A stretch of DNA of 64,000 nucleotides, from the NCBI GenBank assembly GCA_025055015.1, contig JANWYQ010000007.1, forward strand, positions 1,440 to 65,439, written 5' to 3'. The notes beneath the pieces are model-generated. The model saw nothing but the letters and a program-made list of their open reading frames with translations, had not been told where the DNA came from and did no database searches. A program made the position numbers and the translations under genes. Numbering within the stretch: the first letter of the stretch is position 1; each line of letters begins with the position of its first letter. The DNA comes from Caldilineales bacterium. GTDB lineage: Bacteria; Chloroflexota; Anaerolineae; JAAEKA01. Below are positions 42,299 through 48,880 of the stretch, one piece after another.

Positions 42299-43288
42299 TC
42301 ACTGGGTCGCCGAGACGAAGGTGATGCCGGTGCACTGCTCGCTCTGGTTCATGGTGCGCACCCACTTGTCCGACAGCGGCGTGAGGTCGCCGAAGCCGGT
42401 GTCCAGCGTCTGGCCGCCGGGCGGCATGGAGGGCGGGCACTTCACCACGAAGATCTCCACGGTGGTGCCAGGGGGCGGCGGGTTGTTGCCGAAGGGCGCA
42501 AAGCCCCACACGCCGTCGCCGACGCCGTCGCACCCGGAGCACTTGGTGTTGCGCGGGCCGTAGAAGGCGATGTGCACGCACACGCCGTTCATCGGCGAGT
42601 TGTTGCGGTAGCGCACGAAGCCGTTGAAGTAGGTGACGCCGGGGTTCGGCTCGCACCGCTCCACGCCCTTGAGGAGGAAGAAGGGAGTGGTGGGCGCGGG
42701 CGGCTGGGTCGGCTGGGGCACCGGAGTGGGGGTGGGCTGGGGCCGGGCCACGGGCGGCCGGGTGGGCGCCGGAGGGGGCGGCGCCGCGGCCACGGGCACG
42801 CCGCCGGGGTTGCCCTCCAGGGCCACGTACTGGCCGGACACCCAGCCGGCCTGGCCGTTGAAGTTGATCTGCCACCAGGTGCCGGCCTCGTTCCGGCCGG
42901 TGACGTCGTAGCGGTCGCCGTTGCGCGCAGTGCCGATGGCGGGGTAGTTCGTCCCCGGGCCGCTGCGCACGTTCAGGGTGGGGTTGTTGATCACCAGCCG
43001 CGCGGTCTCCGGCGTCGGCGTCGCCTCCGGGGTGGGCGTGGCCTCAGGCGTCGGCGTGGCCTCCGGGGTCGGTGTGGCCTCCGGCGTGTTCGTGGGCGTG
43101 GGGGTGGGCGGCTCCACCGGCGTCATGGTGATGGGCGGCGTGGGGGTGAAAGTGGGCCGTGGAGTGAAGGTGGGTGTGGGCGGCGGACCAGCCTCGCGAG
43201 GAGCAATCAAGTCGCCTAAGGCGCAGGCGGGCGCCACCGCCAGCACCAGCGCGGCGACGATCAGCAGCAAGGTTCGGTTGCGACGCAT
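42299..43288 (-). CDS. secreted lipoprotein: Pro/Thr linker - SH3b domain - Pro linker - Cys-rich C-terminal domain
   Basis: 'LLLIVAALVLAVAPACA' lipobox. (EATPTP)x4 repeat. 'LNVRSGPGTNYPAIGTARNGDRYDV...GTWWQI' SH3b signature. Same architecture as 25984-26910. Confidence 0.7.
   Translation of the reverse strand: MRRNRTLLLIVAALVLAVAPACALGDLIAPREAGPPPTPTFTPRPTFTPTPPITMTPVEPPTPTPTNTPEATPTPEATPTPEATPTPEATPTPETARLVINNPTLNVRSGPGTNYPAIGTARNGDRYDVTGRNEAGTWWQINFNGQAGWVSGQYVALEGNPGGVPVAAAPPPPAPTRPPVARPQPTPTPVPQPTQPPAPTTPFFLLKGVERCEPNPGVTYFNGFVRYRNNSPMNGVCVHIAFYGPRNTKCSGCDGVGDGVWGFAPFGNNPPPPGTTVEIFVVKCPPSMPPGGQTLDTGFGDLTPLSDKWVRTMNQSEQCTGITFVSATQ
43003..43092. repeat. 5 tandem 18-nt units encoding (P)EATPTP linker repeats
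   Basis: Units GGYCTCNGGNGTNGGNGT repeat head-to-tail inside the CDS 42299-43288. Confidence 0.8.
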
Positions 43289-43535: not shown

Positions 43536-44948
43536 TCAACGGCTGCGCTCGCCGCGCTTCTTCTGGCGCTGCGCCTTGCTCCCCCGATAGCTTGGCGCCA
43601 GGATCACCACCACCGTGCAGCGGCTGCTGTCCAACATGCGGCTGGCAATGCGCTCGTCCATCTCCTCCACCGGCTTGCTGCTGGTGATGACCGTGGGCAG
43701 GCGGGCCACGTAGCGGTAGTTGAGGAGCTGGAAGAGCTTCTCGCGGGCCCAGGGGGTGGCGCTCTCGGTGCCCAGGTCGTCGAGGATCAGCAGCGCCGCG
43801 CGGCGCACCTCCTCGAAGCGCACGTCCAGCGAGGCAGCGCTGTTGGGGTTGAAGGCCGCGCGCAGGTAGTCCAACAGGTCGGGCACCACCACGAACATGG
43901 GCCGCTCGTGGAAGCGCTCCACGCGGTGGTTGGCGATGGCCGCGGCCAGGTGGGTCTTGCCGCAGCCGTAGGGGCCCACCAACACCAGCCAGCCGTGGGG
44001 GTCGGCGGCGAAGGCCTCGGCCAGGGCCTTGGCGTGGGCCAGGCTGCGCGCCGCCTCCGGCTCCAGCTCCCCCTGGCGCAGCTCAAAGCTCTCGAAGGTC
44101 TGGTCTGCGTGCAGGCCCAGCACGCTGAGCTCCGGCGCGGTGGGGTCGCCGCTGCCGCGAAAGTCGGGCGCGGTGATGGGCACGATCTGGGTCACGTCGG
44201 GGTCGGCCAGCCGAGAGCGCAGCCGCGGCTCGATCTCCGGCAGGCGCAGGTTGGTGGTGATCACCGTGGGCAGGCGGGCGGTGTAGCGGTAGTTGAGGAG
44301 CTGGAAGAGCTTCTCCTGGGCCCAGGGGGTGGTGTTCTGGCTGCCCAGGTCGTCCAGGATTAACAGCGGCGCGGTGCGCACCCGCTCGAAGCGCTCGTCG
44401 AAACTGACCTCAGAGCTAGGGCCGAAGGTGGCCCGCAGGTAGTCCAGTAGGTCGGGCACCACCACGAACACCACCGGCTCCCCGCGCAGGAGCACCTCGT
44501 GGGCGATGGCCGCGGCCAGGTGGGTCTTGCCGCAGCCGTAGGTGCCGGTGAAGAGCAGCCAGCCGCTGGGCTGGGCGGCGTACTGGCGGGCGATGGCGTA
44601 GGCGGTGCGCAGGTTCTGGCGCTTGTCCTCCGGCAGGCCGATGCCCTCGGGATAGAAGGTGGCGAAGGTCATGTGGCGCAGGTGGCCCAGGTTGCTGATG
44701 CGCAGCAGCTCCGCGTGGCGCTGCGCGGTGAGCTGGTTCACCCGGCAGGAGCAGGGCACGGCGCGGCCGAAGTCGGGGTGGCCCACGGGCACATCGCGCA
44801 CCACGAAGCCCTGCCCGCCGCAGATGGGGCAGGCCTCGCCGGCCGCGCTGCTAGTGTTCGATGAGGTCCTCGAAGCCGCTGGGGAGGTATCGTCGTTTGA
44901 GGGCTTCGTAGGAGTCGTCCGCCGCAAGATCTCGCTGATCGGTTCCAC
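43536..44948 (-). CDS. DnaC/DnaI-like helicase loader with N-terminal zinc motif and two tandem AAA+ modules
   Basis: 'CPICGGQG...PCSC' zinc motif. Module 1: 'GTYGCGKTHLA', 'LLILDDLG', 'VITTN'. Module 2: 'GPYGCGKTHLA', 'LLILDDLG', 'VITSS'. The GTG at 44948 has an AAGGA SD, but the start is uncertain (98-nt overlap with the upstream gene). Confidence 0.65.
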   Translation of the reverse strand: MEPISEILRRTTPTKPSNDDTSPAASRTSSNTSSAAGEACPICGGQGFVVRDVPVGHPDFGRAVPCSCRVNQLTAQRHAELLRISNLGHLRHMTFATFYPEGIGLPEDKRQNLRTAYAIARQYAAQPSGWLLFTGTYGCGKTHLAAAIAHEVLLRGEPVVFVVVPDLLDYLRATFGPSSEVSFDERFERVRTAPLLILDDLGSQNTTPWAQEKLFQLLNYRYTARLPTVITTNLRLPEIEPRLRSRLADPDVTQIVPITAPDFRGSGDPTAPELSVLGLHADQTFESFELRQGELEPEAARSLAHAKALAEAFAADPHGWLVLVGPYGCGKTHLAAAIANHRVERFHERPMFVVVPDLLDYLRAAFNPNSAASLDVRFEEVRRAALLILDDLGTESATPWAREKLFQLLNYRYVARLPTVITSSKPVEEMDERIASRMLDSSRCTVVVILAPSYRGSKAQRQKKRGERSR

Positions 44949-45579
44949 TGTCTTTTCCTTGCGCTGCCCAGCGCTCCAGGATGGCGCGGATGTACTTCCA
45001 GTTGCGGACGTTGAGCTCGGCGGCAATGCGGAACGCGTCCTCGATCCAGCTCTGGGGGAAGGTGCGCTCCGCATCCCGTAGCTCCTCGGCCAGCATGGGC
45101 TGGATCAGGCCGATGTTCTGCTCGTAGAGGGCGTAGATGTGCGGCCGTTGGGCCTGCAGGGTGATCGGCTCCGGCAGGGGTTCGGCCAGGGTGTGGAGCT
45201 CGCCGCGGCGGATGCGCTCCACGGCAGCCCGGCCGTGCTCGCTGTTTAGAAAGTACCAGTCCTCGCTGCCCGAGGAATGTCGCACCTTGACCCGCAGCAG
45301 GGTGCCGCGGGCCTCGGCCCGCTCCAGGCCGCGACGCAGCGCGTCCAGGCCGTCCTCGTCCTCGCCGGCCAGCCCCGCCATCAGCCGATCGTCCGCAGCC
45401 AGCTCCTCCAGCCGCGTGTAGCGCAGGTCGCCCTGCTTGTGGCTCAGGAGCCACAGGCAGTACAGGGTGACCTTGAGCTCGGCCAGGTCGTCCACAATGG
45501 GCAGCAGCTCGGTGAAGAAGGCGTTGGGCACCTTCACCACCGCCTGCCGGCCGGCGGGGAAGCCAGAGAAGGGTTGCAT
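44851..45579 (-). CDS. DnaD/DnaB_2-domain replication initiation/primosome protein
   Basis: C-terminal 'IYALYEQNIGLIQPMLAEELRDAERTFPQSWIEDAFRIAAELNVRNWKYIRAILERW' matches the DnaD-type repeat. Lies between dnaB and the loader. Confidence 0.65.
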   Translation of the reverse strand: MQPFSGFPAGRQAVVKVPNAFFTELLPIVDDLAELKVTLYCLWLLSHKQGDLRYTRLEELAADDRLMAGLAGEDEDGLDALRRGLERAEARGTLLRVKVRHSSGSEDWYFLNSEHGRAAVERIRRGELHTLAEPLPEPITLQAQRPHIYALYEQNIGLIQPMLAEELRDAERTFPQSWIEDAFRIAAELNVRNWKYIRAILERWAAQGKDSGTDQRDLAADDSYEALKRRYLPSGFEDLIEH

Positions 45580-45585
45580 GGGAGG

Positions 45586-46965
<1,380 letters not shown>

Positions 46966-47203: not shown

Positions 47204-47713
47204 TTAGTCGCCGAGGCCTTCGAGGTCCAGCCCCTCTAGGAAGTCGCTGAAGGCGCCGAGATCGTCCTCGCTCTTGGCCTCCGTCTTGCGCTCCGCCTCT
47301 TGGCGGACATCCTCCTCCGGCACAATGCCCGCCCGCGCCATGACGTGGTCCGCCACCAGCACCGGCGCCGAACAGCGCACCGCCAAGGCGATGGCGTCGC
47401 TGGGCCGGGAGTCCACCTCGGTCAGCTCGCCGTCCACGTCCAGCACGATGCGGGCGTAGAAGGTGTCGTTGTTCAAGTCGTTGATCACCACCCGCACCAC
47501 CTCGGCGCCCAAGAGGGTGACGATGGACTTGAGCAGGTCGTGGGTGAGGGGTCGGGCCACCTCCACCCCTTGCAGCTCAATGGTGATGGCGTCGGCCTCG
47601 AAGGGCCCGATCCAAATGGGCAGGTAGCGGTCTCCGTCCACCTCCTTGAGCACCACCACCCGGTGCTGGGACATCAGGCTAACGCGGACGCTATCTATTG
47701 ACACTTCGACCAT
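47204..47713 (-). CDS. bifunctional nuclease (BFN/DUF151) family protein
   Basis: '[43 protein letters not shown]' is the DUF151 signature. Only the last 169 codons of the 540-aa ORF are credible. Confidence 0.75.
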
Positions 47714-47816
47714 ATTGAAGGTGCTCCTGTGGCGTCTTGGCTGGGAGGCGTTGGCGTTGGCTAGGGCAACAGTGCCGCGATTATACCACAGGCCGCAAGA
47801 GCACGCCAAACAAGAG

Positions 47817-47844
47817 TTGTGCGGGGCCCGTCGCTGGATATAAT
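47817..47844 (+). promoter_or_regulatory. sigma70-type promoter placing the TSS about 2-4 nt before the GT2 start codon
   Basis: TTGTGC-16 nt-TATAAT. The -10 ends 10 nt before the ATG at 47855. Confidence 0.45.
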
Positions 47845-47854
47845 CGAAAGCACT

Positions 47855-48880
47855 ATGCGCGTCTCTGTCATCTGCACAGTGCTCAACGAGAAGGAGGCCA
47901 TCGGCCGGCTGCTGGACAGCCTGGCGGCGCAGACGCGGCCGCCGGACGAGGTGGTGATCGTGGACGGCGGCAGCACCGACGGCACCCAGGCGGCCATCCT
48001 TGGCTACGCCGGCCGCCTGCCGCTGAAGCTCTCCGAGGCGCGGGGCGCCAACATCAGCCGGGGGCGCAACCTGGCCGTGCGCCGCTCCACCGGGGAGGTG
48101 ATCGCCAGCACCGACGCCGGCGTGTGGCTGGAGCCGCAGTGGCTGGAGCACCTCTTGGAGCCCCTGGCCGCCCTGCCGGCGGAGGAGCGAAGGCGCAGCT
48201 GCCGCGCGGTGGCCGGCTTCTTCCAGGCCGACCCGCGCACCACCTTCGAGCTGGCCCTCGGCGCCACCACCCTGCCCATGGCCGACGAGATCAAGCCCGA
48301 TCGCTTCCTGCCCAGCAGCCGCTCGGTGGCCTTCACCCGCGTCGCGTTCGAGGCCAGCGGCGGCTACCCGGAGTGGCTGGACTACTGCGAGGACCTGATC
48401 TTCGACTTCCGTGTCCTCGACCGCTGCGGCCCCTTCGCCTGGGCGCCGCAGGCCGTGGCCCACTTCCGGCCGCGGCCCACCCTGGGCAGCTTCTTCAAGC
48501 AATACTACCGCTACGCGCGTGGGGACGGCAAAGCGGACCTCTGGCGCAAACGCCACGCCATCCGCTACGGCACCTATCTGGTGGCCCTGCCTCTGCTCCT
48601 GCTGCTGACCCTGCTCCACCACCCGGCCTGGAGCCTGGCGCTGCTGGCCGGCATGGCCGCCTACTGCCGCCGGCCTGTCCTGCGCCTGCGCCGCCAGTGG
48701 GCGGGCTACGGCTGGCCCCAGCGGCTGGCCGCGCTGCTGCTGATCCCGGTGATCCGGGCCACCGGCGACGTGGCCAAGATGCTGGGGTATCCGGCCGGCT
48801 GGCGCTGGCGGCTGGCCAACCGCCATCGGCCGGAGCTACGCTGGCGCGAGGAGCTTGACAGGGGTGGGGAGTATGGCTAG
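47855..48880 (+). CDS. family 2 glycosyltransferase with C-terminal membrane segments
   Basis: '[42 protein letters not shown]' GT2 N-terminus. ATG at 47855. Confidence 0.75.

Follow-up and report, generated by a model that had tools for sequence, protein, structure and literature searches.

The 64,000-nucleotide (nt) window analysed here (the whole stretch of contig JANWYQ010000007.1 that was studied, from a Caldilineales bacterium) carries on its minus strand a cluster of three genes: dnaB, a gene with a DnaD domain, and a gene that encodes two DnaC/DnaI-type AAA+ (ATPases associated with diverse cellular activities) modules in a single chain. The last of these, which we call the loader gene, has a coding sequence at 43536..44948 (minus strand) within a maximal open reading frame (ORF) of 43536-45074 and specifies 470 residues and a stop codon as a single ORF, with neither stop nor frameshift between the modules in the window translation. 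The original prediction, made from the letters of the window, was that one ORF joins a zinc motif to two full DnaC/DnaI-type AAA+ modules. This is borne out by the translation and by two Pfam matches, and the motifs quoted in its support (CPICGG...CSC; Walker A GTYGCGKTHLA and GPYGCGKTHLA; Walker B LLILDDLG, twice; sensor regions VITTN and VITSS) are all found in the protein. The gene also lies, as had been stated, downstream of dnaB and the DnaD-domain gene. The former (45586..46965, minus strand; 459 residues) is the first gene of the cluster and matches Pfam DnaB_C at 2.7e-111 and DnaB at 2.1e-34; the latter (44851..45579, minus strand; 242 residues) matches Pfam DnaB_2 at 1.9e-6 and NCBIfam DnaD_dom with 40 bits against a cut-off of 24.95.

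The layout of the loader was derived from alignments of 25 and then 112 homologues together with AlphaFold2 models, which were computed for the full length (112-sequence alignment; mean predicted local distance difference test (pLDDT) 79, predicted template modelling score (pTM) 0.49) and for residues 86-462 (92 sequences; pLDDT 87, pTM 0.51). All parts are encoded on the minus strand. A conserved N-terminal peptide (residues 1-10) leads into a Ser/Thr-rich spacer (11-39; together 44832..44948) that is predicted to be disordered, and pLDDT is below 50 at residues 1-37. They are followed by a zinc-type motif, C40-x2-C43-x13-H57-x8-C66-x-C68 (residues 40-68; 44745..44831), modelled with two short strands at 48-50 and 63-65, and by a helix (residues 69-90). 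M1, the first module (residues 91-265; 44154..44678), is a complete AAA+ module with pLDDT mostly 85-96, and is joined by a short, flexible linker, GSGDPTAP (residues 266-273; 44130..44153), to the second AAA+ module, M2 (residues 274-458; 43575..44129). The pLDDT of the linker falls below 50 at residues 266-271 in the full-length model and at positions 180-187 of the truncated one. The chain ends in a Lys/Arg-rich tail, SKAQRQKKRGERSR (residues 459-470; 43539..43574; pLDDT below 50 at 462-470). Nearly all aligned homologues have such a basic tail, as does a four-module variant described below, and it always follows an M2-type module. The unit that is repeated includes an "S-x-L...L...TF..F" lead-in ahead of each AAA+ core, and a VPDLLDxLR segment is common to both modules.

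Conservation of the motifs was counted over 216 aligned proteins of 400-520 residues, some of which are gapped in M2. M1 has its Walker A at G135-T142 (nt 44523-44546), Walker B at D199/D200, sensor I at N233, Box VII arginines at R242/R244/R246 and sensor II at R264; the corresponding landmarks of M2 are G325-T332 (nt 43953-43976), D390/D391, the arginine finger R437 and R455. The Walker A lysine is kept in 214 of the 216 proteins in M1 (K141) and in 205 in M2 (K331), the first Walker B aspartate in 216 (D199) and 204 (D390), and the Box VII arginine in 210 (R246) and 202 (R437). We take R246 and R437 to be arginine fingers by motif analogy with DnaA RLKSRF and DnaC R220. Sensor II is arginine in 176 (R264) and 155 (R455) proteins. 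At sensor I, N233 of M1 is Asn in 172 proteins; the equivalent position of M2, S424 in the window protein, is occupied by Ser (97), Ala (33), Thr (17) or Arg (15) and by Asn in only 11. M2 is a systematically modified and not a decaying module, in which the sensor-I Asn is lost and the P-loop, Walker B and arginine finger are kept. In the zinc motif, C40 is conserved in 178 proteins (37 gaps), C43 in 179, C66 in 212, C68 in 198 and H57 in 163, with Asp in its place in 35. Among divergent two-module proteins (33-46% identical), seven match a strict Walker A pattern in M2 only (P0208, P0211, P0228, P0235, P0246, P0261, P0269), and others, for example P0125, P0133, P0142 and P0150, match it in M1 only. 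Either some lineages may have seen an independent degeneration of one module, or the search pattern may have been stricter than it should be.

Profile searches place the protein within its superfamily. Pfam IstB_IS21 (PF01695) matches in two separate stretches (E 2.4e-37; 129 bits against a cut-off of 24.1), as does Bac_DnaA, and each module has the Walker A (GxxGxGK[ST]) and Walker B (hhhhDD) motifs of the DnaC/DnaI/IstB clade. NCBIfam NF005992 (PRK08116) likewise matches in two stretches with 233.6 bits against a cut-off of 189, and positions 8-243 of the 269 in this profile are covered by residues 29-257, that is, by the zinc motif and M1. The scores for the DnaI equivalog NF006505 (156.3 bits; cut-off 228) and for DnaC NF005931 (115.1 bits; cut-off 357) both stay below threshold. 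These profiles put the window protein in the DnaC/DnaI/IstB clade and, within it, in the PRK08116 subfamily, but do not make it a strict orthologue of DnaI, DnaC or IstB. The nearest solved structures by sequence are Staphylococcus aureus DnaI 5he8, Escherichia coli DnaC 6qel, Geobacillus DnaI 2w58, Aquifex DnaC 3ec2 and IstB 5bq5 and 8q3w. In a Foldseek search of the PDB single modules match DnaC, DnaI and IstB at target-normalised template modelling (TM) scores of 0.55-0.74, with DnaC 3ecc and 6qem and DnaI 5he8 and 2w58 among the matches to M1.

Comparison with the known members of the clade brings out what is particular to the tandem protein. PRK08116-type single-module proteins, including forms of 278-281 residues from Dehalococcoidia and other Chloroflexota, have the same CxxC...CxC motif followed by a DnaC-type AAA+ module and are about 50-57% identical to the zinc-plus-M1 part of the window protein, which adds to their single module a subfunctionalised M2, without the sensor-I Asn, and the basic tail. 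DnaI of Bacillus subtilis and S. aureus resembles it in having a zinc-dependent N-terminal module ahead of the AAA+ fold (TM 0.68-0.74 for 5he8 and 2w58) and a DnaD-domain partner; it differs in being a single-module protomer, and the N-terminal domain of the window protein is much shorter. The zinc ligands of DnaI are C67, C70 and H84, a spacing that is reproduced by the Cys-x2-Cys-x13-His of the window protein (PMC2673437). This ligand spacing gives a lead that the zinc motif could be homologous to DnaI-N, although Pfam DnaI_N has no match on residues 1-124 even at E up to 10, where only a sub-threshold zinc-ribbon match appears. By analogy with DnaI-N, residues 40-68 are presumed to bind zinc and to form a helicase-interaction module (PMC2673437). 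DnaC of E. coli and Aquifex aeolicus (6qel/6qem, 3ec2/3ecc) shares the AAA+ initiator-clade fold and motifs and presumably the activity, an ATP-dependent spiral on the C-terminal face of DnaB, but its N-terminal domain is helical and zinc-free, and each of the six protomers that bind a DnaB hexamer has one module only.

Distribution of the tandem form and its gene neighbourhood

When 5.8 billion protein clusters were searched, at least 120 matched at E <1e-173; the 120 matches listed come from NCBI, JGI, ENA and Logan, are 57-84% identical to the window protein and measure 376-501 residues. In 119 of them a second Walker A motif follows the first at a distance of 190-191 residues, so that at least 119 close homologues have the tandem form. 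A HMMER scan of 1.84 billion cluster representatives returned 831 clusters at E up to 1e-30, and the majority of the top 150 have two modules and a length of 400-490 residues. In addition, one genome per GTDB species was scanned, which yielded at least 585 stretches encoding relatives; the best 80 of these are considered here. All 80 span both modules and all come from Chloroflexota, mostly from Anaerolineae (Anaerolineales, Caldilineales, Ardenticatenales, Promineifilaceae), some of them on contigs of 0.3-6.8 Mb. The domain-architecture search and phylogenetic survey that had been proposed as a check on the prediction thus find the tandem shared by at least 119 clusters and the best 80 species loci. 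It had been allowed that the architecture might prove both common and already annotated: common it is, but the database names read only "DNA replication protein DnaC" or "ATP-binding protein" and do not mention a tandem.

These numbers bear on whether the tandem is real. A repeat collapsed or expanded during assembly, or two genes fused by a sequencing error, could be suspected, since the window appears to be a metagenome-type assembly and the protein as predicted by the gene caller (P0001, 421 residues) has a truncated start. The same architecture is found, however, in more than 100 independent clusters from the four sources and in 80 species-representative genomes, and the modules are about 50% diverged and therefore cannot be confused by assemblers. 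We regard the probability of an assembly or gene-calling artefact, or of a stop or frameshift separating two genes, as negligible.

The gene neighbourhood is conserved as well, and associates the loader genomically with replicative helicase and co-loader genes. A dnaD-like gene lies directly upstream of the loader in 78 of the 80 related loci, preceded in most by dnaB. This bears on the possibility that the window gene serves an IS21-type element as its IstB-like helper ATPase, or belongs to a prophage replication module, instead of being a host loader. IstB_IS21 is indeed the best Pfam family and IstB has a similar AAA+ core (5bq5, 8q3w), single-module relatives occur in 680 phage records, and DnaC/DnaI genes are thought to be phage-derived (PMC5109545). 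The NCBIfam model IS21_help_AAA (NF038214), on the other hand, scores 146.8 bits and so falls short of its cut-off (200), and no IstA transposase lies next to the gene. In contrast to IstB, the window protein has a zinc motif, and its gene sits with dnaB and dnaD; the flanks hold dnaB, the DnaD-domain gene, an SH3-like secreted protein and glycosyltransferases, without transposase or phage genes. The synteny with dnaB is kept across the class, and the tandem form occurs in none of the 680 phage records with matches, in which both modules of the query align to the one phage module. A mobile-element or prophage origin of this kind is, in our judgement, very improbable.

Upstream of and near the conserved CPxC motif, which must lie inside the protein, only two start candidates exist, GTG 44948 and TTG 44927. 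The GTG is preceded by AAGGA 8 nt upstream and gives the product of 470 residues with the N-terminus MEPISEIL, a peptide that recurs at the N-termini of loader homologues. The start lies inside the DnaD-like gene, with an overlap of 98 nt at 44851-44948 (77 nt if TTG 44927 is used) in the +1 frame. In 33 of 60 related loci the two genes must overlap, by 11-98 nt, as no start codon is found between the upstream stop and the CxxC motif, and the frame offset of the loader relative to the DnaD-like gene is the same in 53 of the 60. Conserved overlaps of such length are unusual and suggest tight translational coupling of the two genes. A programmed frameshift from the DnaD-like gene into the loader was set aside in view of the Shine-Dalgarno sequence and start codon that the loader itself possesses; a slippery site or other frameshift signal was not searched for.

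A few observations concern the neighbouring genes themselves. The dnaB genes of two relatives (L081, 1433-3259; L082, 1-1960) contain inteins (Pfam Intein_splicing, LAGLIDADG_3), which the window dnaB lacks. Upstream of dnaB lies a small gene (47204-47700, minus strand), the C-terminal part of a listed ORF of 47204-48826, whose product may be a bifunctional-nuclease (DUF151-type) protein. Directly downstream of the loader, the product of 42299-43288 (minus strand) looks secreted and contains a Pro/Thr-rich repeat, PTPEATPTPEATPTPEAT, which also yields spurious long ORFs on the opposite strand; the gene of a relative in the same slot (L083, 2326-3276) is annotated with an SH3_3 domain.

Age of the duplication and identical DNA runs in the modules

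Within the window protein M1 and M2 are 51% identical. Module identities were computed across 116 proteins: M1 and M2 share on average 52% of their residues within the same protein and also 52% between different proteins, while M1 compared with M1 of other proteins gives 66% and M2 with M2 65%. The M1|M2 bipartition appears in 100 of 100 bootstrap replicates when 20 diverse members of the family are analysed by neighbour joining. Because orthologous modules are closer to each other than M1 is to M2, and because of this split, the duplication predates the radiation of the loader family. By these measures the duplication of the AAA+ unit is ancient, preceding the diversification of the family, and both modules have been under similar purifying constraint since.

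The original prediction had read the gene differently, proposing a recent duplication or ongoing gene conversion from long identical DNA runs exactly 570 nt apart. The longest such run, of 41 nt, occurs in M2 at 43932..43972 and in M1 at 44502..44542, at an offset of 570, and encodes YGCGKTHLAAAIA in both modules. A 33-nt run (43710..43742 and 44283..44315), which encodes EKLFQLLNYRY in both, also exists, but its offset is 573 because of a one-codon indel between the two regions. Longer M1/M2 repeats, of 170 nt (83% identity) and 115 nt (77%), are present as well.

If the modules had been duplicated in tandem only recently, or if gene conversion made them evolve in concert throughout and so kept them alike, the exact runs and the 170-nt repeat would be accounted for, and the codons lend this reading something further. 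Identical residues are encoded by identical codons at 79 of 96 positions in the window, against 59-68 expected (z = 2.6); over 63 loci the mean z is 1.18, and 16 of the 63 exceed 2. Within the 41-nt tract the Ala-Ala codons of the window M1 read GCC GCG, like those of M2, and in the M1 of three close relatives they read GCG GCC. These signs have to be set against the composition of the gene, whose GC content at third codon positions (GC3) is 0.96: most DNA identity in the runs is there because the residues are invariant in both modules and this GC3 forces the same codons. When random codons were drawn from the window codon usage, given both module protein sequences, the longest run averaged 21-25 nt, and 41 nt was reached in 0.3-1.2% of trials (p 0.003-0.012), which leaves a modest but real excess of identity. 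Quartet patterns with the three relatives (78-84% identical) divide evenly between paralogue and orthologue grouping (3 v 3, 3 v 3, 2 v 2), with synonymous sites saturated even between orthologues. As the protein identities and the bootstrap split contradict it, the idea of a recent duplication fails and that of conversion is refuted for whole modules; taken together, this explanation of the resemblance is improbable, and conversion, if real, is limited to short tracts in invariant motifs.

What stands of the proposed gene conversion is the codon excess in the window and in the 16 relatives, together with a tract in one related locus (L012), where M1 and M2 share an identical run of 59 nt at a GC3 of only 0.65. 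It begins about 24 codons past Walker A; the simulated mean is 14 nt, and none of 400 trials reached 59, which makes it the clearest gene-conversion candidate in the loader family. Two other M1/M2 tracts that greatly exceed expectation measure 40 nt (L056) and 38 nt (L062). These data are suggestive of occasional short-tract gene conversion between the modules on top of a strong codon bias.

Module number and a model of the loading spiral

The number of modules varies among relatives. Complete single-module proteins of 278-281 residues with the same zinc motif occur on long contigs and in Dehalococcoidia metagenome-assembled genomes. At the other end, P0121 (827 residues; L081, 4001-6484) combines the zinc motif with three modules of the M1 type and, at the end of the chain, one of the M2 type that carries the basic tail, and its gene occupies the same slot behind an intein-containing dnaB and a dnaD-like gene on a 64-kb contig. 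Its M1-type modules are mutually 52-62% identical in protein and 61-64% in DNA, so that a repeat misassembly is not the explanation. P0124 (792 residues) has three or four modules, with three Walker A motifs and four matched stretches. Since forms with one, two and four modules exist, module number is evolvable, and M2-type modules seem dedicated to the C-terminal position.

Ten further single-module relatives of 365-536 residues (P0227, P0238, P0241-P0243, P0247, P0259, P0262, P0263, P0265) keep an N-terminal peptide, MERMGDILAK, and the zinc motif, separated by 140-300 residues of Ala/Pro-rich low-complexity spacer. This arrangement suggests that the N-terminal peptide is a separate short binding motif. 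Extended single-module proteins of 397-536 residues were also considered as DnaD fusions, which was rejected, as the extensions are of low complexity and without Pfam domains.

DnaC/DnaI-type loaders have been studied as single-module protomers that bind DnaB in a 6:6 ratio. Their AAA+ modules join head-to-tail and, when ATP is bound at the interfaces between them, form a spiral along which single-stranded DNA runs; the arginine finger acts in trans, and the N-terminal domain holds the helicase. Against this background the tandem protein is likely to be the resident chromosomal replicative-helicase loader of Anaerolineae-type Chloroflexota, descended from a PRK08116-type single-module ancestor through the ancient internal AAA+ duplication, and would act as a mixed M1-M2 spiral. 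The ancestor would have had a zinc motif and one AAA+ module of the PRK08116 type, and internal duplication of the whole AAA+ unit would have led to the fixed order of zinc motif, M1, M2 and basic tail. The zinc module and the N-terminal peptide would dock the loader on DnaB, as DnaI-N does, and the AAA+ modules would stack head-to-tail, with ATP at their interfaces, in a spiral of the DnaC/DnaI kind that binds single-stranded DNA. Because both P-loops and both arginine fingers are conserved, the intramolecular M1-M2 and the intermolecular M2-M1 interface both seem to be used, which would give a continuous spiral of alternating module types. Three chains could then do with their six modules what takes six protomers of DnaC or DnaI elsewhere, a 3:6 ratio of loader to DnaB with only three helicase-binding zinc heads per hexamer; a changed loader stoichiometry of this kind had been suggested in the original prediction for a covalent pseudo-dimer. 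The ATP sites would alternate between hydrolysis-competent M1 and an attenuated, slow or regulatory M2 that has lost sensor I in cis.

A more specific proposal, which we put forward tentatively and at somewhat less than even probability, is that the Anaerolineae loader is a covalent string of modules of evolving number (one in the Dehalococcoidia type, two in most, four in one lineage), in which M2 serves as a hydrolysis-attenuated cap and the spiral is built from fewer polypeptides, for example three. The stoichiometry and the mechanism drawn here are putative, and several points weigh against them. The modules fold confidently in the models, but their relative orientation is not predicted with confidence (pTM about 0.5). 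The four-module variant, with three M1-type modules and one M2-type module, does not divide evenly into six, and a simple rule of six modules per hexamer may be wrong. With Pfam DnaI_N undetected, helicase binding by the zinc motif is argued by analogy. The case for gene conversion is a statistical one of modest strength (p about 0.01; 2-3 informative sites), and the view taken is that of a 64-kb window, so that a single-module loader or DciA elsewhere in the genome would lie beyond its reach.

The chief alternative is that M2 is a regulatory or structural pseudo-ATPase appendage: six polypeptides with six zinc heads would bind each DnaB hexamer, M1 would form the six-membered spiral, and M2 with its basic tail would make up a second tier, a cis autoinhibitor, a DNA clamp or a contact for DnaD or DnaA. 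The missing sensor-I Asn and the less conserved sensor II of M2 would fit such a role, as would its constant place at the end of the chain together with the basic tail, which holds for the four-module variant too, although the M1 type alone has multiplied there; so would the flexible linker and the lack of a fixed M1-M2 interface in the AlphaFold2 models. Yet a degenerate appendage would not be expected to keep its Walker A lysine, Walker B aspartate and arginine finger at the frequencies given above or the VPDLLDxLR segment as in M1, nor to evolve as slowly as M1 does. A second tier would recall the type II tandem AAA+ proteins p97/Cdc48, NSF and ClpB, which also have two AAA+ modules per chain, one of them often catalytically attenuated, but which belong to another AAA+ clade and form stacked closed double rings. 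The predicted structure is unlike a stacked two-tier protein such as p97 (TM 0.25), a comparison that uses a model with a pTM of about 0.5 whose inter-module geometry is itself uncertain. As relatives, p97, Cdc48 and NVL were rejected, being topology-only two-domain Foldseek matches at TM 0.22-0.27 and root mean square deviations of 18-22 Å. On balance we consider the appendage unlikely, and the mixed M1-M2 spiral remains the reading that we prefer.

Tandem loaders in the biology of Chloroflexota

A single resident dna[CI] gene, without dciA, was reported in Anaerolinea thermophila (E8N2B4_ANATU in strain UNI-1) and Chloroflexus, together with a domestication event in Chloroflexi (Brezellec et al., 2016; PMC5109545); the words "tandem" and "duplicat" are absent from that text. 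The original prediction treated such an architecture as not known to have been described, and in the full-text-searchable literature, which leaves subscription-only papers outside, we likewise found no description of a two-module DnaC/DnaI loader, including in Brezellec et al. (2016), a 2022 preprint on DciA diversity and Loscha (2009). The tandem loader is common in nature and has gone unnoticed in the searchable literature.

The division of work among the ATP sites of a loader spiral is hard to dissect in a homo-oligomer. A class-wide covalent fusion of M1 and M2 fixes which modules are neighbours and splits the symmetry into two types of site, and this asymmetry would permit site-specific mutagenesis of alternating positions. 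If the spiral is indeed built from fewer polypeptides, the canonical 6:6 ratio of loader to helicase would not be required for DnaC/DnaI-type loading. Should the protein merely act as two DnaI units in tandem, the gain would be a modest one of annotation, namely that these genes should be labelled two-module loaders. In either case the finding adds detail to the domestication of dna[CI] in Chloroflexi (Brezellec et al., 2016), a phylum in which replication initiation has hardly been studied, and the series of one-, two- and four-module forms found at one and the same operon position points to a stoichiometry of the loader that can evolve.

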